This document shows positions 1-13,235 of a stretch of DNA of 13,235 nt, piece after piece. The notes beneath the pieces are model-generated. The model did no database searches. It had not been told where the DNA came from and saw only the letters and a program-made list of their open reading frames with translations. A program made the position numbers and the translations under genes. Position 1 is the first letter of the stretch; each line of letters begins with the position of its first letter. The DNA is from an uncultured archaeon (GTDB lineage: Archaea > Asgardarchaeota > Heimdallarchaeia > Heimdallarchaeales > Kariarchaeaceae): positions 1-13,235 of the forward strand of contig CAZYCQ010000075.1 of NCBI GenBank assembly GCA_964645535.1. The letters run 5' to 3'.

Positions 1-28
1 GTTTAATTGGCTGTCATTGATAAAATCC

Positions 29-1042
29 CTATGAACCTCTCTTGAAAAATTCAAGCTTTTCCTCAATCTCTTTCTCAATCGTTCCATCCCAAACCTCCAT
101 TTGTTCTAATTCCTGTAGGATCTCCCTTAATTTCCGTTCAACTGAGAAATTTGAATAGTTGCTGAAAAGATAACACAGATAATTTTCTGATTCTGCATTG
201 GTCACAACCTTTCCCAAAAACTTCACTCTGTTGGGAAGTTTTTCTGAACCGGCGGTTTCTGCAAGAATCTCCATTGAAGCCTCGATTGCACTTGGAAGAA
301 GATTGGGCAATCTCTCTCCGAAATAATGCTCAAAGACAACTGTGCCTTGAGTTTTATTGATGATGAGGAGATATTGCGGCTTCAAATCTCTCAAGAAAAA
401 GACAAGTGGATTTCTGAAAATGGATATGGATAGCAGAAAAATACCTGCTGGATACAATATTCCGAAAACAATCGTATTTATTTCAAACAAACGTTCCAGA
501 ATAAGCAAAAGTATAGTCAACCCCATGATCGTCCAGCCAAAGACAAAGGTTCTCTCCCTGTTCATTGCAGGAATAGTCATCCAAATTATTCTGACAATTG
601 TCACAATTATTGGTAAACCTATGACCAATGAATGTATCGGATCCTTCAGTGATGTTCTCCATCCTCCATCAACTGCATTGACTCTTATGGAAAAGAAAGC
701 TGTTGTTGCTCCAATTCCTATTGACATGGCCAAGAACAAATCCGCTAATCTCCATTCCTTCCCTAGGATCTGGGATATTGTTACGAACGTTCCCCATATC
801 CCGAAAATGAGGGCTGGAATACTGGCGGACAACAGTCGCTGAACAATTATCTCGTATTTCTGATCCACTGGGATCAGAATGAAAATCCAAACCTCAACAA
901 CACTGTGAAAGGTGAGGAACAAGAACGAAATGAAAAGTCCCCAAAATTCAATCACCTGCTCTCTTCTTTCAGTAATCAGAATCAGGATTGAGGATGTCAA
1001 CATTAGGAATGATCCACTGATCAAAAGAATTTCTTCGACCAA
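29..1042 (-). CDS. 7-TM membrane protein with C-terminal longin-like domain (putative receptor)
   Basis: 337 aa. Seven hydrophobic segments lie in residues ~5-210, with a short polar hairpin-like loop (RVNAVDGGWRTSLKDP) between TM4 and TM5. A ~115-aa soluble tail follows, starting YLLIINKTQGTVVFEHYF, with a beta-beta-alpha-beta-beta-beta-alpha pattern like longin domains. The TTG start is supported by a promoter-like AAGGTTTATT beginning 34 nt upstream. Confidence 0.7.
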   Translation of the reverse strand: MVEEILLISGSFLMLTSSILILITERREQVIEFWGLFISFLFLTFHSVVEVWIFILIPVDQKYEIIVQRLLSASIPALIFGIWGTFVTISQILGKEWRLADLFLAMSIGIGATTAFFSIRVNAVDGGWRTSLKDPIHSLVIGLPIIVTIVRIIWMTIPAMNRERTFVFGWTIMGLTILLLILERLFEINTIVFGILYPAGIFLLSISIFRNPLVFFLRDLKPQYLLIINKTQGTVVFEHYFGERLPNLLPSAIEASMEILAETAGSEKLPNRVKFLGKVVTNAESENYLCYLFSNYSNFSVERKLREILQELEQMEVWDGTIEKEIEEKLEFFKRGS

Positions 1043-1066
1043 CAGATATTGAATGTAATCAAAAAT

Positions 1067-1076
1067 AATAAACCTT
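1067..1076 (-). promoter_or_regulatory. BRE/TATA-like promoter of the 7TM-longin gene
   Basis: AAGGTTTATT on the - strand, beginning 34 nt before the TTG at 1042. The offset matches other promoters in the window. Confidence 0.55.
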
Positions 1077-1081
1077 GAGAA

Positions 1082-2062
1082 TCAAAATACCCGATCGTTT
1101 ACATCCAATTCGAAAACGTCTCTTTTTCCATTCGATTTTTTGAAATACAGGTTGGCTCCTTTTCCATTTGAGTATTTCGTCATACAATACTTCTCACCAT
1201 TGACAGAAATGTAATCATGTGTCCAGAGAAGATGTATCAATATCCAAACCATCTCACGGCTCCTCAATCCTTCTTTTCTATTGATCGGCTCACCATGCGA
1301 CAGATATGCGGCTTTCAAGCCAGATTGAGCTGCAACCTTGCTTAAATTCGAATCCGTTGTCAAAAATAGTATTTCCATATTGGTCACCTTGGATAGTTGG
1401 GTGAATTGCTCAACAATAAGAAAATCAAAAACCGGACTGGTGGGACTGATATTTGCATATTGTGCCGCAACCTCTCCTTCCGGTTTCAACATGAGCATGG
1501 GAAATCCCGGTTTTGCAATAATCAATGGATAACGATCCATCAGTGTCTGCAACATGAATGCTCCGAATTTCCCTCGGCGCCCTCGCGAATTGTATATTTT
1601 GACAGGAAGTATGAAGTCTTTCGGATACCCTCCTGATTTTCTCTCGGACGATGCCATATGATGGAGTTCATACTGTGTTGCTTGGGCGACCAACAATATG
1701 GGAAGTCTCGTAATCGTGAACTGCCGTTGATATTCCTTCTGAACCTGTTTCACAAATCGGTTCACATGATTCTGCAAAAGGAGGGACGTATCCAATGCCA
1801 AGGCAAGTTGACGGTTATCGTTGAAGGAATGGGCAACTGTTTCGGCAATGCTCTTTTGGATGTCGCCTTCATTATCCGGAAAGATGATGCCGGCTCTCCA
1901 AAGCAAATCCCTGAACCTATACTGCTCACTTCCCTGTATGGTAAATGACCCCTCCCCTTCCCCATCAATCACCAGATCAATTTTTTCATCACGGAATGCC
2001 TCGATGTTGAAAGTGTTTTCCTGTTCAAGTAAATTTTTGAATTCCGAAAAAAGTGACTTCAC
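1082..2062 (-). CDS. PIN-domain ribonuclease with N- and C-terminal extensions
   Basis: 326 aa. The PIN acidic tetrad appears in the expected contexts: LALD91TS, ATQYE132L, VFD213FLI and FLTTD237SNLSKVAAQSGL. The GTG start is preceded by AGGAGAGG and by AACTTTTTAAAA beginning 33 nt upstream. Confidence 0.8.
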   Translation of the reverse strand: MKSLFSEFKNLLEQENTFNIEAFRDEKIDLVIDGEGEGSFTIQGSEQYRFRDLLWRAGIIFPDNEGDIQKSIAETVAHSFNDNRQLALALDTSLLLQNHVNRFVKQVQKEYQRQFTITRLPILLVAQATQYELHHMASSERKSGGYPKDFILPVKIYNSRGRRGKFGAFMLQTLMDRYPLIIAKPGFPMLMLKPEGEVAAQYANISPTSPVFDFLIVEQFTQLSKVTNMEILFLTTDSNLSKVAAQSGLKAAYLSHGEPINRKEGLRSREMVWILIHLLWTHDYISVNGEKYCMTKYSNGKGANLYFKKSNGKRDVFELDVNDRVF

Positions 2063-2083
2063 TGCATTTCCTCTCCTTTCTGA

Positions 2084-2095
2084 TTTTAAAAAGTT
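2084..2095 (-). promoter_or_regulatory. TATA-like promoter of the PIN gene
   Basis: AACTTTTTAAAA on the - strand, beginning 33 nt before the GTG at 2062. Confidence 0.5.
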
Positions 2096-2131
2096 GATGC
2101 GTACTTCCGATCCCCTGCCCTTGGAACTGAA

Positions 2132-3421
2132 TCATTGATTTTCTATCTCATTGATTGTTTGATCCAAGTAAATCCTGATTTTCGCCAACAATTCCAAACC
2201 TTTGGGAGTTAACGCCACCTGCTTTTTATTCATTCTCTCCAAATCAGGAAGTTTCTCCACCCAGCCTTTGTTGATAAGGAATTCAATAGCGGATCTGAGG
2301 TTTCTCTTGGGATTAGGAAAGCTCTTTCCGATAGTTTTCAGGTCGGTTGGAGAATTCTTCTCCAAAAAGGAAAGAATATAGTAATGGGAAAACTTGAGGA
2401 CAAGAATCTTGTCCAAATCCTTCTGTTCAATTCCCTCTTCCTTCTGCTTCACCGGCAAGTCTTCGACAAGACTGCTTTCTGCAATCTGAACTGTCCTGTA
2501 CTCAAAGATTGTCCGTCCAACGATGAGAACCGTCACCACGATAAAAAATATCGAGTTGTCAAGAAAGTGCTTTGAAGTGATGAAATACTTGAAGACCAGA
2601 AGAATGAAGGTTAACCATCCTCCGATTATTCCCAGATTCTTGTAGAGACTTACCTTCCTCATGGTTTCAAACTGCAGCACCTTGTTCTGTTCCAACTCTT
2701 TCAGTCCTTCCAAAGATTTCACTCTCAGCCGTCCATACATGAAACGGAAAATTGAGTAGGCAATTGCAGTCCCAACAAGTATGATTGCCACAAGCACCAT
2801 GGCAAATGAATTCTGTGAGTAGGGATATGGGAGGGCAAATACCAATACCCATGTGAAATTGACCATGAATGGATCCATCCACTCCCTCCATAGCTCAAGA
2901 GGGGCTGTTGTCTCTACAATTCCATATTTCATCATCCCTATCAGAAGCAAAATTACAATATGGACTGCATTGGTCAGAATGGTACTCATTATCACAAAAA
3001 TCCAAAAGATCCATGGACCTAGGAATCTTTCGGAAAATATCCGTCCATAAATCGGATAATTCAATGCCTCTCCTGTCCCCGCCTGTTGTTGCCAACTCAA
3101 AACAAGAACCGAAAAAAAACCCAAGTAGAATATGAATGTCCCCCCCATCAATATGTTCCAAATTCTCCTCAATGAATACCCCTTCATTTCATCAAGTAAT
3201 GAAAAGTAATGCTCAAATGCAAAGCCGAAAAAGGAAGTCACATAGAAATATGCCAAAATGAAAAATCCTGCATGTGCACAAAGAAAAAGATAGGTGAACC
3301 AATCAATATCCGTAAAACCAAGATGATTTGTGATCGGTATTCCAAAGGGTATGACCAGCAAGATCACCGAACAAACAACTATCATGACCTTCCTGCTGCT
3401 CCCCACCTGCACAAGGAACAT
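2132..3421 (-). CDS. Polytopic membrane protein (~8 TM) with C-terminal MarR-like winged-helix domain, paralog A
   Basis: About 8 hydrophobic segments, then a wHTH pattern (ILSFLEKNSPTDLKTIGKSF...NLRSAIEFLINKGWVEK...VALTPKG). I moved the start from 3430 to Met4 at 3421 (429 aa) because it then begins MFL like paralog B and lies 35 nt from AAGATTTATC. Confidence 0.8.
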   Translation of the reverse strand: MFLVQVGSSRKVMIVVCSVILLVIPFGIPITNHLGFTDIDWFTYLFLCAHAGFFILAYFYVTSFFGFAFEHYFSLLDEMKGYSLRRIWNILMGGTFIFYLGFFSVLVLSWQQQAGTGEALNYPIYGRIFSERFLGPWIFWIFVIMSTILTNAVHIVILLLIGMMKYGIVETTAPLELWREWMDPFMVNFTWVLVFALPYPYSQNSFAMVLVAIILVGTAIAYSIFRFMYGRLRVKSLEGLKELEQNKVLQFETMRKVSLYKNLGIIGGWLTFILLVFKYFITSKHFLDNSIFFIVVTVLIVGRTIFEYRTVQIAESSLVEDLPVKQKEEGIEQKDLDKILVLKFSHYYILSFLEKNSPTDLKTIGKSFPNPKRNLRSAIEFLINKGWVEKLPDLERMNKKQVALTPKGLELLAKIRIYLDQTINEIENQ

Positions 3422-3446
3422 CGTATCCATTTCACAAAAAAAGAAT

Positions 3447-3456
3447 GATAAATCTT
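3447..3456 (-). promoter_or_regulatory. BRE/TATA-like promoter of paralog A
   Basis: AAGATTTATC on the - strand, beginning 35 nt before the ATG at 3421. It is embedded in the imperfect inverted repeat ATGATAA-N6-TTGTCAT (3445-3464). Confidence 0.55.
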
Positions 3457-3518
3457 ATTGTCATACTTCTCAAACAATTCCCTCAGTTCATCTTTCAAAC
3501 TTACTCTCTTGAATACGC

Positions 3519-3528
3519 AAAGGTTAAG
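3519..3528 (+). promoter_or_regulatory. BRE/TATA-like promoter of the CARF gene
   Basis: AAAGGTTAAG begins 33 nt before the ATG at 3552, which favours that start over the GTG at 3531. Confidence 0.6.
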
Positions 3529-3551
3529 ATGTGCCTACAGAAACCTGTCCT

Positions 3552-4025
3552 ATGCCCAACACATTGATTGCCACCTGCGGCGCAAGCCTGAATGGTATCC
3601 ACAATGTCCTTTTTGCCCATTATACCAAAGGAGAACATGCCATCAAACGTGTTGTTCTCCTTCTCACAAAGCAACTTCTCAATAGTTTTTTCAATGACCT
3701 TGTCTCCTTGATCCAGAAAACCAACGACCAAATGGGATGGAAACTTCCTCTGCCAGAAAAACAGGTCATCCCCGGTGAAAACCTTATTGAGATCAGAACC
3801 GCAATCGGCAAAATCCTTGACAAATATGACGAATTCATTCTTGACATTACCGCTGGAAGAAAGGTCATGGCTGTTGGTGCTGCCATGGCATTCGATCGAG
3901 CCCAAGTCAAGAACAAGGTGATCTCGTACTATCTTCTGAAAGGCGATGTCGTGGCTCCTGCCACTGACCGACTATTGCAGCACCTGATGGCTGACGAATG
4001 GGAATTGCAGTATTACCGTCCATGA
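3552..4025 (+). CDS. Stand-alone CARF-domain protein (cyclic oligoadenylate sensor or ring-nuclease-like)
   Basis: 157 aa with a Rossmann-like alpha/beta pattern. CARF motif I is LIATCGAS12 at the first strand, and motif II is FILD98ITAGR103K104VMA (D-x-T-x-G-x-K). There is no fused HTH or nuclease domain. Confidence 0.85.
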   Translation: MPNTLIATCGASLNGIHNVLFAHYTKGEHAIKRVVLLLTKQLLNSFFNDLVSLIQKTNDQMGWKLPLPEKQVIPGENLIEIRTAIGKILDKYDEFILDITAGRKVMAVGAAMAFDRAQVKNKVISYYLLKGDVVAPATDRLLQHLMADEWELQYYRP

Positions 4026-4086
4026 CCTCTGCCCTTCCATTGATTGATTCTGGTCGGCATCTCGCCCATAAAACGCAGTGTAAGAA

Positions 4087-4096
4087 AAAGACTTTT
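4087..4096 (+). promoter_or_regulatory. BRE/TATA-like promoter
   Basis: AAAGACTTTT begins 34 nt before the ATG at 4121. The identical 10-mer recurs at 4644. Confidence 0.55.
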
Positions 4097-4120
4097 CTAT
4101 ACTTAGGTTATCTCTTTCCC

Positions 4121-4600
4121 ATGGAAAAACAAGATCGTCCCCTTTCCTCACGAAACATCCGGATAATTTTCCTCATCCTCACCTTCTTCCCCGTCATATA
4201 CCTAATCCTGCTTTTTGTGTTCTCGTCCACTGAGACAGAAACTTCGCCAGATCCCACATTCGATACAATTCTTCCTATCGGTTGGGCAATTATTTCTGTA
4301 GTTGACATCCTTCTCGCATTTTTCATATTCCTACCAAAATTCAATGCACTCATGCAAAAAGATGCTACCATGAGAAATGCAAGAGAGGCTTTTTCCCATC
4401 TGATGATTGTAAGCACTTTGCTGGAAGCCATTGGCGTTTTCGGACTTATAATCGGAATCATGCAGATTTTCGTCACTGGAACCTTTGCCTTTCCTATCCC
4501 CTCTCTCTTTATCGTAATCTCCTTCCTTTTCTGTCTCTATATTTATATGACCTATGTCCCCCGTCTCACCTCCATGATCGATCAGGCCATGGGGATGTAA
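4121..4600 (+). CDS. Hypothetical 4-TM membrane protein
   Basis: 159 aa from ATG 4121 (MEKQDRPLSS...). The ORF-track start at 3998 overlaps the CARF gene and spans the promoter. There are four hydrophobic helices, and TM3 contains LLEAIGVFGL. Confidence 0.75.
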   Translation: MEKQDRPLSSRNIRIIFLILTFFPVIYLILLFVFSSTETETSPDPTFDTILPIGWAIISVVDILLAFFIFLPKFNALMQKDATMRNAREAFSHLMIVSTLLEAIGVFGLIIGIMQIFVTGTFAFPIPSLFIVISFLFCLYIYMTYVPRLTSMIDQAMGM

Positions 4601-4643
4601 TTCCTTACCTCCTCTGTTTCTCAAACCAAGCTCTCAAAGATAC

Positions 4644-4654
4644 AAAGACTTTTA
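4644..4654 (+). promoter_or_regulatory. BRE/TATA-like promoter
   Basis: AAAGACTTTTA begins 35 nt before the ATG at 4679. Confidence 0.6.
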
Positions 4655-4678
4655 TCATCTCCACCAAATGCATCCCCT

Positions 4679-5053
4679 ATGGGGCTTTCAACAAAAGATT
4701 ACATAGCCATCGCCTTAACGGCATTGACAGGTATCATCCACCTTTTTATCGGTCTTGTAACCACCATTTCAGAATTCAATGTTCTCAACCTTCTCCTCCT
4801 GCTGAACGGAATCGGATATCTCTCACTTCTCACGGGAATCTACTTCCCGAACCTGACCGGAGGCTTGACTGAAGGAAAAGACGTACTTTTGAAAGAAACA
4901 CTCATCGGTTTCACCATCATCACCATTATCGCCTACTTCATCACTTGGGGAACGGAAGGCCTTCAAAACATCGTCGGAATGGCAACCAAAATCATCGAAC
5001 TTGCCTTGGTGCTCGTTCTGCTGACCAGCCTCGGTTCATCTCCATCTGAATGA
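4679..5053 (+). CDS. Small 4-TM membrane protein of unknown function (possibly DUF7475-like)
   Basis: 124 aa with four TM helices carrying intramembrane polar residues: TGIIHL, LNGIGY, GFTIITI and TKIIE. The family label is from memory and is unverified. Confidence 0.75.
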   Translation: MGLSTKDYIAIALTALTGIIHLFIGLVTTISEFNVLNLLLLLNGIGYLSLLTGIYFPNLTGGLTEGKDVLLKETLIGFTIITIIAYFITWGTEGLQNIVGMATKIIELALVLVLLTSLGSSPSE

Positions 5054-5103
5054 AACAATTGGCAAGATTCTGTAGACAAAATTCAACTTTTCCTCGTACA
5101 CAT

Positions 5104-5113
5104 AAAACTTATC
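5104..5113 (+). promoter_or_regulatory. BRE/TATA-like promoter of paralog B
   Basis: AAAACTTATC begins 35 nt before the ATG at 5139. Confidence 0.5.
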
Positions 5114-5138
5114 AACCTATCCATTCCCTTGATTTTGG

Positions 5139-6425
5139 ATGTTCCTCCTCGAAACCCAACGAAGAAAGCAAATCCAATGGTTCACCCTTGCCTTCATCAT
5201 CGTGGGAATCCCTGTCGGAATACCCATGGTCATGCTCTATCGCCCACACTTTGTATTCGACTGGTTCAGCTACATCTTCCTCGTCTTCCATGCAATATAT
5301 TTCATCAGCGCATACTTTCTTGTAACCTTCTTCTTTGATTTCGCAAATATCCACTTTTTCTCCCTCTTGCACAAAGAACAGTATCAATCCATCCGAAAAA
5401 TATGGAACCATTTCCAAATCGGTGCCATTGTCTTTTTCACTGCACTTTTCGGCATGGTCGCACAACATGACTGGAAAAGATATCTCACAGACCCGGCAAT
5501 GCATGAGGCAACGCCAACCGACAACACCAATTACGGATCTCTCTTTACCTTCGGCCCATGGGGATGGGTACTCTTCGCCCTTTTCATCTATATGGCCGCA
5601 CTACTCATCAATGCAGTGTTCACCGTACTCTTCACCCTCCTCTGCACCAAAAAATGTGAACAAACAACCACCACCATCCCAATCGAAAGATGGAGAGATT
5701 GGTCCAAGAACTTCCTCATCTATCTTGTCTGGCTCATCCTGTTTACCCTCCCATTCTCCCTCTCCAGTGGCGAACTCCTCACAATTTTCTACATCCTATT
5801 CCTCTCCGGTCCAACCATCGGATACCTCATCTTCCTCTACACAACCACACTCCTGAACTACAAAAAACCAGAAACCATTGAACAGTTCATCGAAGCCAGA
5901 AAATTGGAATTCCAGACCATGAAAAAAATAAACCTCTCCAAAAATGTCGGAATCATATTCGCATCACTTACATTCATCCTCATGGTCAACCGATACCTCT
6001 CCACACCACAACGATTCTTCAACAACCCAATACTCCTTGCAATTGCAACCATCATCATCATCGGAGGAACCGCTTTCGACTATTGGTCCGCTCAGATTGA
6101 AGAAAAAAGCCTCACTGAACTCGAACCAAAAAAATCAACAAATATAGACCCAAAACAGATCCACTCAATCCTCTCCTTCAGATTTGCACACTTCTACATC
6201 CTATCCCACCTCGAAAAAAATTCCCCAACTGACCTCAAATCACTCAGAAAAACTTATCCAAACAGCCCAACCAACCTCAGATCATCTCTCGACTTCCTTG
6301 TCCAAAACAAATACATCGAAAAAAAACCAAAACTCCAAAACATGAACAGAAAAACTATCGAAATCACCCCTCAAGGATTAAAAATCCTCAACCAAATCAA
6401 AACATACCTCAGCTCCGAAGAGTAA
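5139..6425 (+). CDS. Polytopic membrane protein (~8 TM) with C-terminal MarR-like winged-helix domain, paralog B
   Basis: 428 aa, colinear with 2132-3421 (DWFSYIFL/DWFTYLFL, SIRKIWN/SLRRIWN, GPW, LEKNSPTDLK). My hand count gives 40/77 identities across the wHTH region. Confidence 0.85.
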   Translation: MFLLETQRRKQIQWFTLAFIIVGIPVGIPMVMLYRPHFVFDWFSYIFLVFHAIYFISAYFLVTFFFDFANIHFFSLLHKEQYQSIRKIWNHFQIGAIVFFTALFGMVAQHDWKRYLTDPAMHEATPTDNTNYGSLFTFGPWGWVLFALFIYMAALLINAVFTVLFTLLCTKKCEQTTTTIPIERWRDWSKNFLIYLVWLILFTLPFSLSSGELLTIFYILFLSGPTIGYLIFLYTTTLLNYKKPETIEQFIEARKLEFQTMKKINLSKNVGIIFASLTFILMVNRYLSTPQRFFNNPILLAIATIIIIGGTAFDYWSAQIEEKSLTELEPKKSTNIDPKQIHSILSFRFAHFYILSHLEKNSPTDLKSLRKTYPNSPTNLRSSLDFLVQNKYIEKKPKLQNMNRKTIEITPQGLKILNQIKTYLSSEE

Positions 6426-6624
6426 AATCCCAGATTCTTCCCAGAAGCTGATTCCTAAATGGATTAAAAAAAAAAAACATTCCAAACTCAATGAGGCTAT
6501 CCATGATATTACCCCAATATTGCCAATAGCTACCATCGCACTCATCTTCCTGACCGTTAATAATAACCAAGAACCAAGACATGAACCAGACGTGTTCGGA
6601 GTAGATCCAAAATAACCCAAATAA

Positions 6625-6946
6625 ATGATAATCCCAACAAAAAATTTTGCCCAGGAAACAGATAATTTCACTGGATGAATGTAGATCAACTATGTTTGGA
6701 AAGCATCGAAATATTGCTCTTCTCCATAGAACAATTGTCAACAATGCTAACCATTTCGTAAATGAGATTGAAATCTTTGTCAATGAGGTTATGTAGGCAC
6801 TCGATCAGAAAAATCTTGAAATTTTTGCTCAATTTTAAAATGAAATACTGAATGAATTCTATAACATAAGGAAATCTACTCATATCATATTGCAGCAAAT
6901 TGACAGAATAAACAAAATGTTACTAAGACTTCTCAAGTTAATTTAA
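6625..6946 (+). pseudogene. Possible degraded gene remnant next to the tRNA 3' end
   Basis: One + frame (6632-6946) reads ...KQIISLDECRSTMFGKHRNIALLHRTIVNNANHFVNEIEIFVNEVM*ALDQKNLEIFAQF*NEILNEFYNIRKSTHIILQQIDRINKMLLRLLKLI*. It has only two internal stops (TAG 6794, TAA 6836) in about 105 AT-rich codons. An out-of-frame ATG lies at 6625. Confidence 0.25.
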
Positions 6947-6952
6947 AAAAAA
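6945..6952 (-). terminator. Oligo-T terminator after tRNA-Gly
   Basis: A T8 run on the - strand begins 3 nt after the tRNA discriminator, typical of archaeal intrinsic terminators. Confidence 0.6.
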
Positions 6953-6954
6953 GA

Positions 6955-7026
6955 TGCACGAGCCGGGAATTGAACCCGGGACAAGAGCTTGGAAGGCTCC
7001 TATGATAGCCACTTCACCACTCGTGC
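6955..7026 (-). tRNA. tRNA-Gly (anticodon TCC), intronless, CCA not encoded
   Basis: The reverse complement folds as a cloverleaf: acceptor stem GCACGAG/CTCGTGC plus A73, anticodon stem GGAGC/GCTCT with loop CTTCCAA, and T arm CCGGG-TTCAATT-CCCGG. Confidence 0.97.
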
Positions 7027-7053
7027 TTTTCTGATTGAATTAGATATTGGAAG

Positions 7054-7062
7054 TTTATAAAA
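7054..7062 (-). promoter_or_regulatory. TATA box of tRNA-Gly
   Basis: TTTTATAAA on the - strand, ending 28 nt upstream of the mature tRNA 5' end. Confidence 0.65.
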
Positions 7063-7355
7063 TTTGGGACTTGATTCATTTTTTTGGATTTTGACTTTTC
7101 CGTAATTTTTCCATTTGCAATTTTTTGGCAATTTTAATAATTTCTTTTTTTTCAATTTAGTGTATGATGGTTCTTGTTCTTGATTTTGCCATTTCCTTTT
7201 CAGTGATTTTATTTGGTTTGACAGTTGTGCTTCCTGCTGGTTCGCAGCGTGTTTCTCCGGAGCGTAAGGATTCTGATTGATGGTTTTTGTTTTGTTGTTT
7301 GATCATGTTTGTGATGTTTGCTTTTGAGTGATATTGTGAAGGTTCTCCGGAGTAC

Positions 7356-7365
7356 AAGTTTAAAT
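7356..7365 (+). promoter_or_regulatory. BRE/TATA-like promoter of the radical SAM-HAD operon
   Basis: AAGTTTAAAT begins 34 nt before the ATG at 7390. Confidence 0.6.
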
Positions 7366-7389
7366 TGTTCCTGTTGTAAGTTATTCAGG

Positions 7390-8808
7390 ATGCATATCCT
7401 GATGGCTCAATGTTATTTTCGTGTGCTTGATCCTAAGGAGTATTCTCGTCAGATGCCTTATCCTCCATTGGGTTCATTGATCTGTGCGGAGCTGTTGCGG
7501 CGGGAGGGTCATGAGGTAACGTTTTTTGATGCGATGCTTGGGACACCTGCTGAATTGATGGAGGTGTATTGTTCGGATGATTTTGATTTGGTTGTATTTT
7601 ATGATGATGAGTTCAATTATTTGACGAAGATGAGTCTTTCACGGATGCGTGAGACTGTTCTAGATCTTGCCGGTTCGATAGTTGAGCCTGTGGTTGTGTA
7701 TTCAAGTGATGCGATGTATGTTCCTGAGTTGTATCTTAGATCTGGTGTTGATTATGTTCTTTGTGGTGAGGGAGAGTTTGCTCTTTTGGAGTTGTTGGGC
7801 GCATTGGCAGGTGGTTATTCTCCTGATGGCATTGAGGGTTTGCATTATCTGAAGGACGGTCGTTTGGTTGACGGTGGTCGTCGTGGTTTGCATGGTTGTT
7901 TGGATGATTTTCCGGATCCTGCATTTGATTTGGTTGATTTGTCTCGGTATCGGTCGATTTGGCGTCGTCACCATGGGTATTTTTCGTTGAACCTGAGTAC
8001 CAGTCGTGGTTGTACCTATGGTTGCAATTGGTGTTCCAAGCCACTTTGGGGTCGTACGTATCATGCTCATTCTCCGGGGCGTGTGGCTTCGTTGATGCAT
8101 CGTTTGGTTTCTTCGTACGGTGTTGACCATTTCTGGATTACGGACGACATTTTTGGGTTGAAGAAGGGTTGGTTGTCCGATTTTCGTCGTGTTCTTAGGG
8201 AGATGGATTTCCGTCCCCGGTACAAATGTCTTTCACGTGCGGATTTGCTGGTGCGTGGTGATACGGTTGAATTGTTGAAGGCTACGGGTTGCCAGACGGT
8301 TTGGATCGGAGCGGAATCTGGGAGTCAGCGAGTGTTGGATGCCATGGAGAAGGGTATCCGTGTGGAGCAGATTCGTGAGGCGGTTAGGCTCTGCAAGGCG
8401 GCTGGGCTTGAGATCTGTTTTTTCATTCAGTTTGGTTATTTGGGTGAGGATTGGAACGACATTTTGAAGACTCGGCAGTTGATACTTGACACACTTCCCG
8501 ACGACATTGGCATATCGGTTTCGTATCCTCTTCCTGGTACACGGTTCTATGACATTGTGAAGGATCGTCTGGGCGTGAAGCGTAATTGGGAGGATTCTGA
8601 CGATCTGGATCCGTTGTTTCCCGGCACCTTTCCTCGTGAGTTCTACCGATACCTTCATCGTTTGGTTCACAACGAGTATCGGCTCGCCTTGGTTCGGGAT
8701 TCATGGGCACCCCGGTCGATTGCAAAGCGTATATATCATTGGTTGGGGAAGAAACATTTTGAACGGAAGGTAAAGCCATATATTTCGTCAAGGATTTCTT
8801 TGACATAG
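7390..8808 (+). CDS. Cobalamin (B12)-binding radical SAM enzyme
   Basis: 472 aa from ATG 7390 (MHILMAQCYF...). The N-terminal B12-binding region has PYPPLG and VDYVLCGEGE. It carries the CxxxCxxC motif SRGCTYGCNWC, plus ITDDIF, IGAESGSQRVLDAMEKG and YPLPGT. Confidence 0.93.
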   Translation: MHILMAQCYFRVLDPKEYSRQMPYPPLGSLICAELLRREGHEVTFFDAMLGTPAELMEVYCSDDFDLVVFYDDEFNYLTKMSLSRMRETVLDLAGSIVEPVVVYSSDAMYVPELYLRSGVDYVLCGEGEFALLELLGALAGGYSPDGIEGLHYLKDGRLVDGGRRGLHGCLDDFPDPAFDLVDLSRYRSIWRRHHGYFSLNLSTSRGCTYGCNWCSKPLWGRTYHAHSPGRVASLMHRLVSSYGVDHFWITDDIFGLKKGWLSDFRRVLREMDFRPRYKCLSRADLLVRGDTVELLKATGCQTVWIGAESGSQRVLDAMEKGIRVEQIREAVRLCKAAGLEICFFIQFGYLGEDWNDILKTRQLILDTLPDDIGISVSYPLPGTRFYDIVKDRLGVKRNWEDSDDLDPLFPGTFPREFYRYLHRLVHNEYRLALVRDSWAPRSIAKRIYHWLGKKHFERKVKPYISSRISLT

Positions 8809-9509
8809 TGAACAGGGACGGCATTCGCGTGCTGCTTCTTGATTTCGACGGCACGCTTATTGACTATCGTGTGGCAGAATACCATGCGATACGGGATGTC
8901 TTGGTCAATTGGGGTGTTCGAGACATAGAAGCTGCCGCACGAAGGTACAATATTATCAATGAAGGTCTGTGGGCAAGGTTTCGGAAGGGTGAGCTTGATG
9001 CGGCAAGCATTCGTTCCTTGCGTTTCAAGATGCTTTTTGATGAGCTGGAGATTGACCGCGATCCTCTGCGATCCAATTCCGAATACCTTGAATCCTTCAT
9101 TTTTCATTCAAAGGTGGAGCCAGATGTTTTGGAAGGCATTCAAAGGCTGAAGGAATCTGGTTACTCCCTGATGGTTCTCACCAATGGGTTTCATGACACG
9201 CAAAGGCGGCGATTGGAGCAGTCCGGTCTGCTTCGGTATCTTGACGGGTATTTGACAAGCGAGCAGGTTTCCAGTCCCAAGCCTGCTCCTGCAATGTTTG
9301 AGCGAGCCTTGAAGAAGTTTTCGGCCTTTCCGCATGAGGCATTGATGGTGGGCGATTCACTTGAGGCGGACATCGGCGGTGCTTCGGCTCTGGGTATCCC
9401 ATCGATTCTGATTGGGGATGGGATGCCCGATGTGCCGCCTCTTCCTCATGCTGTCTTTCCTGATTTTCCGGGTTTTGTATCCTTCTGGTTGGGTGATGAC
9501 TTCTCTTGA
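8808..9509 (+). CDS. HAD-superfamily phosphatase, YjjG/YfnB-like (pyrimidine nucleotidase-like)
   Basis: 233 aa with motif I DFDGTL, motif II LTNG, motif III PKP and motif IV GDSLEADIGGA. The GTG start overlaps the radical SAM stop (TAGTG). Confidence 0.9.
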   Translation: MNRDGIRVLLLDFDGTLIDYRVAEYHAIRDVLVNWGVRDIEAAARRYNIINEGLWARFRKGELDAASIRSLRFKMLFDELEIDRDPLRSNSEYLESFIFHSKVEPDVLEGIQRLKESGYSLMVLTNGFHDTQRRRLEQSGLLRYLDGYLTSEQVSSPKPAPAMFERALKKFSAFPHEALMVGDSLEADIGGASALGIPSILIGDGMPDVPPLPHAVFPDFPGFVSFWLGDDFS

Positions 9510-9534
9510 TGGCTTTGCGGTATGTCCTTTCGGA

Positions 9535-11160
9535 TTATGCGATGACTTCTCCAGATAGTCTTTCCGCTGCTTTTCTGAAGTCCTTCTCTGCCATGTGGAG
9601 GGTGTTGACCAAGAGTGGTTTGGCTTGATAGAAGGCATCCCTCATTTCCTGTGTCTTGGAGACAAGGTTTGGGAGTGCATCGACAGCGTTTCTGAAGACG
9701 AGGTTGGATTCGATCGTCTTTGGTATCCAGTCTACGAACTCTGTAAGCCTTGGATGGATGGGATAATAGAATATTGCCTTATGCTTGCCGAATAGCGAGT
9801 TCTTGTCAAACTTCTTCAGTGTGTCCGGTACCTTGACGGGTGGGATTGCGATTGTAAAGATGTCATTCTTGTTTTTCTTGCCGTATTGGAAGATATAGAT
9901 GGGTAGGAGCATTTTGATGGTCTGCCCCGGATTGTCCAGCTTGAATCGTTCGGGTTCGATCATGGGTGCCCCTTCGGTCTGTACCTGTTTTTCAATTTCG
10001 CGAGCCAATTGGTCCTTGCGTTGCAGGAACTGTTCATACTTGCTTTGTGCTTCCTCAAGCTGAAGCTTGATTTCTGCAAGTTCAGCATCCCTTTCCGCCT
10101 TGGCATCGATCAGCGTTCTTCGAATGGCTTCTTTGTCAAGTTCAGCCTTCCTTTCAAGATCTTCGACATCGAGTTTTAGATCGGCATCGATGTCTGCTTC
10201 TCTGTTTCTGGTTCGGTTCACCTGATCCTTTGCGAAGCTGATGGCAGCCTTGAATGTGTCTGTGGCATCATCAAGCGCTGCAAGGGTTTCGTCGATGGCG
10301 GTGATGGGATCGTCTCCGGGAGTTGCGGTAAGTTTTTCCAATTCCTGCACCAGCTTTTCGATCTCTTTCTCGTCCTTGCGGATATTCTTTGCCACTCCCT
10401 TTACGAAGGTTTTGATGTTCTCCTTTTTGGCCTTTTCAGCTTCCTTTTTCAAATTTGCAAGATCCGCCTGCAATTTCTTTTCTCTTTCCTTCAGTTTGGT
10501 CTTTTCTTCTGTTTCCAGTTCCTTTATCAGTGTTTTCCAATAGGTGGTGCGTTCCTCAAGCAATGTTTTCTGGTCGTCTACCTCTTCTTTGAAAGCGGCT
10601 TCTGCCATCTCGATGCGTTTCTTGATTTCATCATTCAAGCGTTTCTTGTCATAGATTGCACTGTTGACGGATGCAATGTCGGCCTTCAGATCTGCCTGTT
10701 CCCGCGTGGCTGGCAGTTCCTTGAAATCCCAGTTTCCGTCCACCCGTTGTGCATCAAGAAGTGCATAAATGATTTCAAGGTCTTTCTTGCCGATTCCTCC
10801 CTTGAGGATGGTGTCGGTGACCTTGAGCTGCAGGAGTTTCTTGTAGACCCTATCGACCGTGAGGTTGGCACGGTTGTCAAGAAATGCCTTGAGTTCCTGT
10901 ATGTCGATGAGGTTGGTGATGGGTACGCGGATTTCCTTTCCGCTTGAGGGATTCAATGCAAGATAGCCTCCGGTCTTGGTCTTGACAAATAGCAATGGGA
11001 TGGATGCCTTTGAGATGCGCTTGATCTGGTCTGCCTTTCCTACTGCCTTGTCCCCTAGAAAATCCGAAGCAAGAATCAACATCCCTGCTGTTTCCGCAAG
11101 CTTGTCCTCTTCAGCTGAAAGTGAGCTTGTCTGAAACTTGACTTTGATGTTCGATGCCAT
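9535..11160 (-). CDS. Hypothetical coiled-coil protein with globular N- and C-terminal domains
   Basis: 541 aa. Two proline-free, E/K/A/L-rich helical runs (residues ~151-280 and ~286-397) are separated by PGDDP. There is no TM segment and no recognisable ATPase motif. A TATA-like AACTTTAAGT lies upstream (11200-11191). Confidence 0.8.
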   Translation of the reverse strand: MASNIKVKFQTSSLSAEEDKLAETAGMLILASDFLGDKAVGKADQIKRISKASIPLLFVKTKTGGYLALNPSSGKEIRVPITNLIDIQELKAFLDNRANLTVDRVYKKLLQLKVTDTILKGGIGKKDLEIIYALLDAQRVDGNWDFKELPATREQADLKADIASVNSAIYDKKRLNDEIKKRIEMAEAAFKEEVDDQKTLLEERTTYWKTLIKELETEEKTKLKEREKKLQADLANLKKEAEKAKKENIKTFVKGVAKNIRKDEKEIEKLVQELEKLTATPGDDPITAIDETLAALDDATDTFKAAISFAKDQVNRTRNREADIDADLKLDVEDLERKAELDKEAIRRTLIDAKAERDAELAEIKLQLEEAQSKYEQFLQRKDQLAREIEKQVQTEGAPMIEPERFKLDNPGQTIKMLLPIYIFQYGKKNKNDIFTIAIPPVKVPDTLKKFDKNSLFGKHKAIFYYPIHPRLTEFVDWIPKTIESNLVFRNAVDALPNLVSKTQEMRDAFYQAKPLLVNTLHMAEKDFRKAAERLSGEVIA

Positions 11161-11297
11161 TTTTTCCCTATTACCCCTGAAATCGGTCTTACTTAAAGTT
11201 AGCAGTTCTTTTGAAGAGTTTTGAACAGCCGGCTTACCTAAATGCTGACCTGCTTGGAAAGTTTTTATTTACATGGTTTCCTACGTCCATTCTGAAT

Positions 11298-12536
11298 ATG
11301 GGTAATCTCAGAGTCTTCTTCAGATCGGTTCGTTTCACCACCCGGACTAAACGCAGGTTTCTTGTCTTTGTGACCATCTTCGCCCTGACAGCTGCATTTA
11401 TCGCATTTTTCGTGAACACTCTTGATGGCTACTACACCTCTGACTATCTTGACCAGAGAGGTGTTTTTCTTCAGCAGTTTGACGATCACAATGTGACTGC
11501 AGGTCAGGGAGAAGCCACTCTCCAAAGGATACGTCAGGTTTCCTCGGTTGAATTGGATGAATTGCAGCTCTACCGCTACATTGACGTGGATGCGTCGTTG
11601 CGTATCTTCAGCATCAATATTTCTCGACCGTGGATGCACCCTTGGGTCAATCCTGAAGTGGTTCTCACGGGTCATTTCCCATCGGGCACGAATCAGGTTC
11701 TGATCCCGAACGGTGACTTGCAGATCCGAAAAACAGTTTCGAACATTTACATGTCAAGCACTGTCGCAGTAGGTAGCAAGTTCTTCTTCTCAAACGGAAC
11801 CCTGAGCAGTGCCAATGCCACTGCCCTTGAATTTGTGGTCTCGGGAACTTTTGATGGATCGAATTTCGGCAATACGCAACGTGACACCCTCTGGATTTTC
11901 ATGGATGATTCCATGTTTGACAGGGTCGTCCAACTCTATGGTTTCAATGCCAGTTCTGAAGTCTATACCCATTCCGCAAGCATTACTGTCAAGACACAGG
12001 GTTTCTTCCCTACAGGCGTTGATTACGACAATGTTGCAACATTGAAGGATGAAATCGAGACTCAGGTGCTTCCGGATACCACATTGGGAAGATGGGAGCA
12101 GACGGCCCAAACCTCTTCTGCCACCGTCAAAAAGGAAGCCCGTAATCGGGACATCACTTCTTTTGGTTTTGCCATTCTTGGCGGAATTGTTCTCACCTTC
12201 ATGTTCTCATACTTGCTTTCCCGATTCAGGAAACGGGAAGTTGCAATCCTCAAGGCTATGGGATGGGGCAAAAGCTCAATTCGGCTTACCCTCATTGCAG
12301 AAATCCTGACCACTGCCATGACCGGCTTTGTCCTTGGAATGGTGGGTGCAAACGGTACCTTGCTGTATCTGAGCCTACGTGATCTCAATACGCTGCGTCG
12401 ATCCGCATTTCTTCGACCGGAAGCAATCCTTGCCTCCTTCATCATCATTGTGGTGGTGACCTTGCCGGGCATGATGTTTGCAACTTTCAGAGCATTGAGA
12501 GTCAGTCCAATGGAGGCTTTTAGAGACAGGACGTGA
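11298..12536 (+). CDS. ABC transporter permease, FtsX/MacB family
   Basis: 412 aa from ATG 11298. It has an N-terminal TM, a large extracytoplasmic domain with N-x-S/T sequons (NVT, NIS, NGT, NAT, NAS), then three TMs with the FtsX-type motifs RKREVAILKAMGW and SPMEAFR. TATA-like AAAGTTTTTATTTA at 11258-11271 argues against the TTG start at 11211. Confidence 0.9.
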   Translation: MGNLRVFFRSVRFTTRTKRRFLVFVTIFALTAAFIAFFVNTLDGYYTSDYLDQRGVFLQQFDDHNVTAGQGEATLQRIRQVSSVELDELQLYRYIDVDASLRIFSINISRPWMHPWVNPEVVLTGHFPSGTNQVLIPNGDLQIRKTVSNIYMSSTVAVGSKFFFSNGTLSSANATALEFVVSGTFDGSNFGNTQRDTLWIFMDDSMFDRVVQLYGFNASSEVYTHSASITVKTQGFFPTGVDYDNVATLKDEIETQVLPDTTLGRWEQTAQTSSATVKKEARNRDITSFGFAILGGIVLTFMFSYLLSRFRKREVAILKAMGWGKSSIRLTLIAEILTTAMTGFVLGMVGANGTLLYLSLRDLNTLRRSAFLRPEAILASFIIIVVVTLPGMMFATFRALRVSPMEAFRDRT

Positions 12537-13219
12537 TCATCATGAGTGTAGAAGTATTGCTTGAAGCCAAAAATCTTGTCAAGACCTATCGTAGAGGTAG
12601 AAATGAAGTGGTTCATGCCCTTCAGAATGTCTCCCTCAAGGTCTACCCTGCGGAAATGATCCTGCTTTTCGGACCCTCTGGATCTGGAAAATCCACCCTA
12701 CTCAATCTTCTTTCGGGTTTGGACAAACCCACCTCCGGAGAGATTTTCTTCATGGGCAAGGACATTACGAAGATGGATGAAAATGAATTGACTGTTTTCA
12801 GGCGCAATGAAGTGGGATTTGTCTTTCAGTCATGGGAACTGATCGACCACCTGAATGCGGTGGAAAATGTTGAAAGTCCCCTCTACCCTTCGAAAATTGA
12901 TGGGGGTGAACTCAGAACACAGGCCATCCAGTTGCTTAGAAGACTTGAGCTCATGGATCGAGAATTCCATTTTCCAAAGGAACTGTCTGGTGGTGAGCAA
13001 CAGAGGGTGGCCATCGCTCGCGCTCTCATCAAGAAACCGAAGATCGTATTTGCTGATGAACCCACAGGCAATCTTGACCAAGCAACGGGTGAATTGATCA
13101 TGAGGCAGATGAAAACCATCTGTAGGGCAGGAACCACCATGATCATTGCCACCCACAACGAAGAACTGAGGAGATATGCCGACCGTGTCATTCGACTGAC
13201 TGATGGAAGAATTATGTAA
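12533..13219 (+). CDS. ABC transporter ATP-binding protein, LolD/MacB family
   Basis: Walker A GPSGSGKS, Q-loop GFVFQ, signature LSGGEQQRV, Walker B/D-loop VFADEPTGNLD and H-loop ATHN. The start is either GTG 12533 (GTGA overlap with the permease stop) or ATG 12542. Confidence 0.96.
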   Translation: MIIMSVEVLLEAKNLVKTYRRGRNEVVHALQNVSLKVYPAEMILLFGPSGSGKSTLLNLLSGLDKPTSGEIFFMGKDITKMDENELTVFRRNEVGFVFQSWELIDHLNAVENVESPLYPSKIDGGELRTQAIQLLRRLELMDREFHFPKELSGGEQQRVAIARALIKKPKIVFADEPTGNLDQATGELIMRQMKTICRAGTTMIIATHNEELRRYADRVIRLTDGRIM

Positions 13220-13235
13220 AAAAGCTACTTTGCGG

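Follow-up and report, generated by a model that had tools for sequence, protein, structure and literature searches.

To our knowledge, in all experimentally characterised CARF effectors the sensor and the effector are held in one chain. In Csm6 and Csx1 (CARF-HEPN) and in Can1, Can2 and Card1 (CARF-nuclease) a CARF dimer senses the cyclic oligoadenylate (cOA) made by Cas10 and switches the nuclease on; the HEPN and PD-(D/E)xK effectors of these proteins bear no relation to PIN and always share a chain with CARF. Here we describe two genes from an uncultured Heimdall-group archaeon of the Asgardarchaeota, family Kariarchaeaceae, which code for a CARF-only protein and for a separate PIN-like protein. 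They are located on a stretch of 13,235 nt (contig CAZYCQ010000075.1, positions 1 to 13,235), which was analysed as a whole and is called the window in the following. Profile searches, structural models and gene neighbourhoods support the view that these genes code for the two halves, sensor and nuclease, of one CARF-PIN effector which is made as two polypeptides. The pair is real and probably working. The combination of CARF and PIN is of a known, catalogued kind; what is new here is a clade in which the gene order is divergent, a winged helix-turn-helix (wHTH) gene inserted between the two halves and a count of co-occurrences with Cas10.

Three families combining CARF and PIN are given in the 2025 CRISPR-Cas classification, Crf6 (CARF_m1) as well as Crf10 and Crf11 (CARF_m3), and the latter two are described as archaea-specific, predicted RNases (PMC12669027 Supplementary Table 2). 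The ligand of these families is uncertain, because many of their members are located away from CRISPR loci. For Crf6, our literature search found no published functional test. A solved protein with both parts in one chain is SiRe_0806 from Sulfolobus islandicus, which carries the title 'PIN domain-containing protein' in the PDB and is available in the apo form (9jxw) and with cyclic tetra-adenylate (cA4; 9jxx). A literature search for SiRe_0806 and 9JXW found no paper on this solved CARF-PIN protein.

The two genes of the window and the domains of the predicted effector (lengths in amino acids, aa) are as follows.

3552-4025, plus strand: CARF-only sensor protein P0010, 157 aa, assigned from motifs, model and structural matches.
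1082-2062, minus strand: PIN-like effector P0001, 326 aa, putative non-CARF part of a CARF-PIN effector, assigned from the match to SiRe_0806.
1811-2062, minus strand: effector N-terminal domain, aa 1-84, three strands and two helices; candidate surface on which CARF may dock.
1277-1810, minus strand: predicted PIN catalytic core, aa 85-262, with D91/E132/D213/D237 and an insertion of about 80 aa, from conservation and profiles.
1085-1276, minus strand: effector C-terminal domain, aa 263-326, one helix and beta-strands according to the model, with an NLYFKK motif.

The open reading frame (ORF) of P0001 begins with GTG, and its homologs start with MKSLF or MRSLF at the same place. The ORF of the CARF protein spans 3531-4025 (+); read from the ATG at 3552 it gives 157 aa, beginning MPNTLIATCGAS and including LDITAGRK, and the database protein P0010 has exactly the same length. 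The gap between both genes amounts to 1.49 kb, their transcription is divergent and an ORF at 2132-3430 (-) lies in between. An initial annotation made from the DNA sequence had already described a 157-aa CARF-only protein with CGAS and DITAGRK, a 326-aa PIN protein with four acidic residues, and a distance of about 1.5 kb between the divergent genes with a membrane-wHTH gene between them. The translation contains both motifs, the four residues (D91, E132, D213 and D237) do not vary among 25 representatives of the family, and the ORF coordinates agree with the layout.

The 157-aa protein is a member of the CARF superfamily as judged from its predicted Rossmann-like fold and from the presence of both ligand-site motifs, CGAS as motif I (G10, S12) and DITAGRK as motif II (D98, T100, G102, R103, K104). 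Its AlphaFold model, based on an alignment of six homologs, has a predicted local distance difference test (pLDDT) score of 85. With this model Foldseek returned 64 matches at E <= 1e-3, and among the matches listed all are CARF proteins. Using VIA, Z scores of 11-14.2 over 120-147 residues were obtained against Csm6, Crn1 (Sis0455, Sso2081), Card1, Can2, Csa3, Cad1 and SiRe_0806. Since Crn1 is tied here with Csm6, Card1, Can2 and SiRe_0806 (Z 12.9-14.2), the fold alone picks no CARF subfamily. In sequence comparisons, the profile of this CARF family matches Sso2081 at E 3e-5, with its GTS and DITGGRK motifs in register. Curated profiles match the protein weakly (Pfam CARF_Card1, E 5e-4; NCBIfam cas_Crn1, NF040581, E 3.7e-6), and the score for Crn1, 26.8 bits, is below the equivalog cut-off of 125 bits. 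The PADLOC models matched are CARF_m13--CARF (4e-9), CARF_m1--CARF_PIN (1.3e-8, positions 5-125 of 465) and CARF_m1--CARF (E 1.7e-6). In 30 CARF partner proteins from other loci G10, N18, T100, K104 and Y127 show no variation, D98, G102, R103 and M106 reach at least 90% conservation, and the motifs are kept in the forms G-x-S/T and D-x-T-x-G-R-K; Ser12 and the pair Arg103-Lys104 are likewise conserved.

For P0001, an acidic tetrad, the profiles of its family and the predicted alpha/beta/alpha fold point to a PIN-type nuclease with a predicted RNase activity. It is these three features taken together which lead us to call P0001 a PIN protein, as the single sequence matches no PIN model. The family is rare: a profile search through 1.84 billion proteins yielded 25 representatives, and the 24 credible members in this set are all 157-389 aa long, i.e. 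unfused. When the 25 representatives (17-69% identical to P0001) are aligned, the mean column identity is 26% and exactly five columns are invariant, four of which are acidic, D91 (LDTS), E132 (QYELHH), D213 (VFDFLI) and D237 (TTD), in the order and the context of a PIN active site. Five of the 25 match the Pfam family PF13638 PIN_4 (best 6e-8) and one matches PIN_8. The profile of the P0001 family matches the PIN domain of MJ1533 (3i8o) at E 1e-3 with both the DTN...E and the T.D...G motifs aligned, and SiRe_0806 at E 0.07 on the T.D...G motif. In VIA comparisons with ordinary PIN domains the model of P0001 gave Z 6.5 to 3i8o, 5.4 to 1o4w and 5.4-5.8 to SMG6, values which, being below 8, are not decisive alone. 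Between the second and the third acidic residue, the core carries the insertion of about 80 aa (aa ~133-212) with a near-invariant RGxRGxxG (G164, G167), and G58 in the N-terminal domain is also nearly invariant in the 25 representatives. The pLDDT of the model is 67 overall, 74-86 in the N-terminal and 71-84 in the C-terminal domain, and 34-55 in the insertion, which is thus poorly modelled. A match of the C-terminal winged helix of MCM6, seen when a profile from five close homologs was run against PDB sequences, had an E value of 0.1 and was dismissed as chance level.

Structural searches with Foldseek and VIA led from both proteins to parts of one and the same solved chain. The CARF model aligns with residues 1-136 of SiRe_0806 (Z 13.4, root mean square deviation 2.5-2.9, 19-20% identity), and the model of P0001, residues 1-314, with residues 155-400 (Z 9.6, root mean square deviation 4.9, 220 aligned residues, 17% identity). 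For P0001 this is the only clear structural match (Foldseek E 5e-5), the next rows in VIA being at Z 6.5, and the aligned span takes in the C-terminal domain. Together, the two genes of the window thus cover the solved fused chain. The domain order is the same as well and the whole chain is accounted for, yet SiRe_0806 is one polypeptide as opposed to two genes in the window, and the similarity in sequence is not significant (E 0.07-0.48). That sensor and effector may be split here had been suggested in the initial annotation, and the fold, the gene neighbourhood and fusions within the same family, as defined by a hidden Markov model (HMM), all speak for it. Its further suggestion that the N-terminal extension of the PIN protein docks the CARF protein fits the alignment insofar as residues 1-84 of P0001 match the segment directly after CARF in SiRe_0806; for the docking itself, the prediction of a complex, discussed below, gives weak support.

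To see how far the pairing is conserved, 400 genomes of the phylum were scanned with the PIN-family profile and the surrounding ORFs with CARF and PIN HMMs. The PIN family is present in 38 of the 400 genomes and in 28 of 85 genera, a patchy distribution. At 40 of the 43 informative loci the PIN-family gene is adjacent to or fused with CARF, hence the co-location is kept among homologs, and the neighbouring small-CARF and long-PIN genes in other archaea, which the initial annotation had mentioned, do exist. Altogether 46 distinct loci were found. In 31 of them, CARF is located directly upstream of the PIN gene, co-directional and often overlapping with it; in six, those of the window's clade, both genes are divergent; and three consist of a single fused ORF of 534-548 aa (L074, L080, L088). 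A contig end cuts the locus in three cases, no CARF was detected despite the presence of upstream DNA in two (L059, L073), and one is ambiguous (L090). Along its whole length the PADLOC model CARF_m1--CARF_PIN is matched by fused ORFs, at E 1e-41 and 1e-36.

Wherever close homologs of the two genes were inspected, they were located together. Among the divergent loci, L001 has the same synteny as the window, including the intervening wHTH gene. At L006-L008, L004 and L018/L019 the divergent pair is directly adjacent, 77-97 bp apart, and in L004 it is found in a completely different neighbourhood from that of the window. A DinB gene lies between the two divergent genes at L017. In more distant members (L020/L021, L022, L023) CARF immediately precedes PIN on the same strand, and the two genes often overlap. 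In a maximum-likelihood tree of the PIN halves the six divergent loci form one clade together with the co-directional L020, with 100/100 support, and the fused forms appear in a separate clade. As the divergent loci fall into one clade, the divergent layout is the derived state of one lineage: an ancestral operon with CARF followed by PIN has been rearranged to divergent genes in the clade of the window.

Some of these neighbourhoods show further genes. In two metagenomic loci, L020 (1-7116) and that of P0029, the pair stands at the end of a string consisting of a superfamily-1 helicase (AAA_11/AAA_12), an uncharacterised protein of about 350-380 aa and a PLD nuclease. At L022 it follows MJ1673- and MJ1674-like genes (770-1153 and 1178-2545), and the 455-aa MJ1674-like protein matches the CARF HMM at E 7e-7. 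In the most distant divergent locus, L004, an OLD-family (AAA_15 and TOPRIM) nuclease gene (6903-8708) lies 0.7 kb from the pair, hinting at the setting of a defence island. In L081 (2646-4170), L093 (3099-4352) and L094 (3068-3907) the PIN gene is preceded by a tandem of CARF-like ORFs or by a CARF partner of 280 aa with an additional domain. The PIN-family genes at L059 (G388:C61) and L063 (G387:C81), of full length (E 1e-108), form a small clade in which we could detect no CARF neighbour; at L059 the two ORFs upstream, 200 and 130 aa long, do not match the CARF HMM, and genome G387 holds a second PIN-family copy with CARF (L060). Possibly these genes are orphan PIN paralogs which borrow a CARF protein in trans.

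Compared with the catalogued families, the pair is closest to Crf6. The fused Asgard relatives, which were found with the PIN-family HMM as well, align with CARF_m1--CARF_PIN throughout, the CARF protein of the window matches the CARF part of this model, and the locus of the window is away from cas genes, as is the case for Crf6. In contrast to Crf6, the pair is split over opposite strands and divergent in this clade; moreover, the PIN half from the window matches no PADLOC model and the CARF half scores slightly better on CARF_m13--CARF. Not being one chain, and with a PIN half below the family profile, the pair is no strict member of Crf6; the most fitting description is that of an offshoot of a Crf6-like lineage, split and with a divergent arrangement. 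Crf10 and Crf11, which include ST0035, share with it the archaeal origin and the combination of CARF with a predicted PIN RNase, and a relative, P0015, weakly matches CARF_m3--CARF_PIN (1.6e-5), but these are fused proteins and the proteins from the window do not match the m3 model. A phmmer search with the fused Asgard protein L074 against the PDB gave no link to SiRe_0806, so that this search assigns SiRe_0806 neither to CARF_m1 nor to CARF_m3. To Crn1 (Sso2081, Sis0455; Crf7) the sensor half is similar in being CARF-only, in its size, in the retained Ser and in giving its best sequence match there, with GTS and DITGGRK aligned; it differs by a score far below the cut-off and by its obligate pairing with a PIN gene, which Crn1 does not have. 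With Csm6/Csx1 and with Can1, Can2 and Card1 the likeness extends to the CARF folds (Z 12-14).

A possible source of the signal is found in the genome itself. The initial annotation saw no cas gene, repeat array or nucleotidyltransferase in the 13 kb and spoke of a pair with no CRISPR, Cas10 or cyclase. For the window this holds: scans with Pfam and PADLOC found no cas, nucleotidyltransferase or defence family among its other ORFs, and a search for a CRISPR-like repeat array within it found none. For the genome it does not hold. In the assembly of 3.6 Mb, which comprises 176 contigs and is 89% complete, contig C82 carries Cmr1, Cmr6, Cmr5, Cmr4, Cmr3 and a 615-aa Cas10/Cmr2 (TIGR02577, E 2.5e-48), which is a complete type III-B module, and the cyclase motif of this Cas10 is intact ('...IYAGGDDVLAI...'). 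The same contig (L024, 1-10255) also codes for a 562-aa TIGR02221/DxTHG Csx1-like CARF protein, for Csx15 and for an AAA ATPase similar to MADS3 and to the effector of the retron Eco8; these 10 kb contain no CRISPR array. The Cas10 protein begins without an obvious HD region. There are three cas1 genes in the genome. A second candidate cyclase is encoded on contig C54 (L025:7792-8592, -), an orphan 266-aa SMODS/NTP_transf_2 nucleotidyltransferase between the genes for a peptidase M48 and a solute-binding protein, with no effector gene in view beside it. As the cognate cyclase of the pair it was rejected, there being no linkage, as it is located on another contig in a non-defence context.

Cas10 palm2 was detected in 69 of the 400 surveyed genomes. 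It co-occurs with the PIN family in 23 of 38 genomes, compared with 46 of the 362 genomes that lack the family, a count which is descriptive only, since related genomes are not independent; in the clade of the window all four surveyed genomes have Cas10. Linkage to cas10 was seen for seven distant members of the family, which lie 2-9 kb from it (G384:C4, G015:C1, G241:C83, G241:C29, G195:C118, G116:C1 and L023). The pair of the window itself lies neither in nor next to a type III cas locus, as the window holds no cas gene and the cas10 of this genome is found on contig C82.

From these results we consider a trans-assembled RNase of the Crf6/CARF_m1-like lineage, gated by a cOA that is probably cA4, the most likely explanation, with a probability of about 0.6. 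In this scheme a homodimer of the CARF protein would bind a cyclic oligoadenylate, most likely cA4, which would probably be supplied by the genome's own type III-B (Cmr) complex from the other contig. The dimer would dock on the N-terminal domain of the PIN protein, corresponding to the segment after CARF in the fused proteins, and the bound ligand would switch on the PIN RNase with its putative metal site D91/E132/D213/D237. Non-specific cleavage of RNA might then bring an infected cell to growth arrest. The results give both folds, the conserved tetrad and CARF motifs, the conserved pairing, the fusions and a GGDD Cas10 in the genome; that the two proteins bind, which ligand is sensed, that RNA is cut and in which direction the regulation runs are the parts which we infer. 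Binding between both proteins is proposed chiefly because of the fusions and the adjacency of the genes. In addition, a prediction of the CARF and PIN complex, made with own alignments, had a score of 0.42 with the best control at 0.00. The mark used in this prediction is reached by 58 of 80 solved complexes and by 2 of 110 mismatched pairs; at scores of 0.60 or less it is reached by 7 of the 80 solved complexes and by both of the passing mismatches, and the result is graded as weak support. The runs share at least 86% of the contacts and the pLDDT of the partner is at least 84. Since a like complex, the fused SiRe_0806, has already been solved, the pass may reflect likeness and not binding.

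Several points weigh against a cOA-gated RNase. Besides the weakness of the complex prediction, these are the divergent orientation of the genes and their distance of 1.5 kb in the window, owing to which co-expression is not guaranteed. With P0001 itself, searches of Pfam, NCBIfam and PADLOC gave neither a PIN nor a CARF_PIN match. Its residues 125-209, in the catalytic region, are the worst-modelled part (pLDDT 34-55), too uncertain to give the geometry of the putative active site or the position of the tetrad in space. In the one published test of a fused CARF-PIN protein that we found, ST0035 from S. tokodaii showed only weak cross-linking to cA4 and no induced RNase (PMC6546367). Finally, a Cas10 match is missing in 15 of the 38 genomes that have the family, three of which are 94-99% complete (G074, G386, G388).

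These last two points bear at the same time on a different possibility, a CRISPR-independent, ligand-gated RNase or toxin-antitoxin-like module, in which CARF would sense a signal not made by Cas10 (the product of a SMODS enzyme, a host nucleotide, an RNA end) or would hold PIN inactive until released. It would agree with the description of Crf6 as typically not CRISPR-associated (PMC12669027), with the location of the window's clade among housekeeping genes far from cas genes, with the SMODS gene outside any defence context and with divergent transcription, which permits different expression ratios of the two halves. Against this, Cas10 is enriched in genomes with the family and present throughout the surveyed genomes of the clade, seven members are found in type III loci, the nearest solved relative, SiRe_0806, binds cA4, and none of the loci examined shows a cognate cyclase linked to the pair; we regard this possibility as unlikely. 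In a more specific version, which we consider slightly less likely still, free CARF would hold PIN off in the manner of an antitoxin and a nucleotide signal, not necessarily made by Cas10, would release it, giving a housekeeping-embedded circuit for stress or abortive infection in Asgard archaea; because the genes are divergent and separated by the membrane-wHTH gene, the ratio of CARF to PIN could be set independently. A classic toxin-antitoxin operon, on the other hand, is disfavoured for the window, as the genes are divergent and do not overlap.

The CARF protein could also be mainly a Crn1-type ring nuclease that degrades the cA4 made by Cmr, with PIN constitutively regulated or only loosely coupled, or it could be a self-limiting sensor which does both. 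Its best sequence matches are indeed to Crn1 (cas_Crn1 and the chains of Sso2081 and Sis0455, the latter at E 3e-5 with the motifs aligned), it is CARF-only and of Crn1-like size with Ser12 and Arg103-Lys104 conserved, and Crf6 is marked 's,e,r' in the classification, i.e. as a ring nuclease too (PMC12669027). The score, on the other hand, remains far under the equivalog cut-off and by fold Crn1 does no better than the other CARF subfamilies; a plain ring nuclease needs no adjacency to, overlap with or fusion to one PIN family, as it is seen in 40 of 43 loci, and the Cmr locus already has its own Csx15. This makes such a role about as improbable as the antitoxin-like switch. By far the least probable reading is that the genes are unrelated neighbours and the PIN-like protein a housekeeping enzyme of RNA processing. 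The distance of 1.5 kb, the opposite strands, the gene in between and the lack of a match of P0001 to any curated family would allow it, but the survey of neighbourhoods contradicts it, with the pairing kept in entirely different contexts (L004, L018, L020, L022, L023) at 17-30% protein identity; in addition, fused forms exist, both halves map on one solved chain, and the patchy occurrence of the family is unlike that of a housekeeping gene.

If the proposed cOA-gated RNase is true, a naturally split pair of CARF and nuclease that assembles in trans would mean that a cOA signal sensed by one protein can be relayed to another. Because its halves can be mixed, titrated and swapped, the pair would be a clean system for studying the signal transfer from CARF to a nuclease. 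The source genome offers a defined test case in this respect, as it has a single type III-B system, a single pair and a single orphan SMODS gene. Split pairs of this kind are widespread among Asgard archaea and in other archaea, so the finding does not stand alone.

The gene located between the pair and the region next to it complete the list of features.

2132-3430, minus strand: P0002, multi-pass membrane protein of 432 aa with a C-terminal wHTH; lineage-specific insertion.
3431-3551, no strand: A+T-rich intergenic region between the CARF gene and the wHTH-PIN gene string, read from the sequence; presumed promoter region.

The signal for the C-terminal wHTH of P0002 is weak (HTH_45, E 0.09). 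A paralog of 428 aa at 5139-6425 (+) is 38% identical and matches HTH_34 at E 1e-4. The CARF gene therefore has a membrane-wHTH paralog on either side, each on a different strand; L001 has both paralogs and the next relative, L006, has neither. Both paralogs weakly match the PADLOC model 'CARF3--CARF_TM' (E 6e-4 and 2e-3) with their C-terminal parts only, and as evidence for a CARF domain in P0002 this match was rejected for that reason. Only in the window and in its closest relative L001 is a membrane-wHTH gene found between the pair. A role as third component was rejected, since the other four divergent loci lack the gene, as do the co-directional and fused loci without exception. It is a lineage-specific insertion, later than the divergent layout, and stands outside the conserved unit.

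Apart from these, the window codes for membrane proteins, including the 428-aa paralog, a tRNA-Gly, a B12/radical-SAM enzyme, a HAD hydrolase and an FtsX/ABC pair. Across the tRNA-Gly at 6955-7026 (-), the GC skew jumps from about -0.46 to +0.35 and the AT skew from +0.26 to -0.41 (window positions ~6000-7500).

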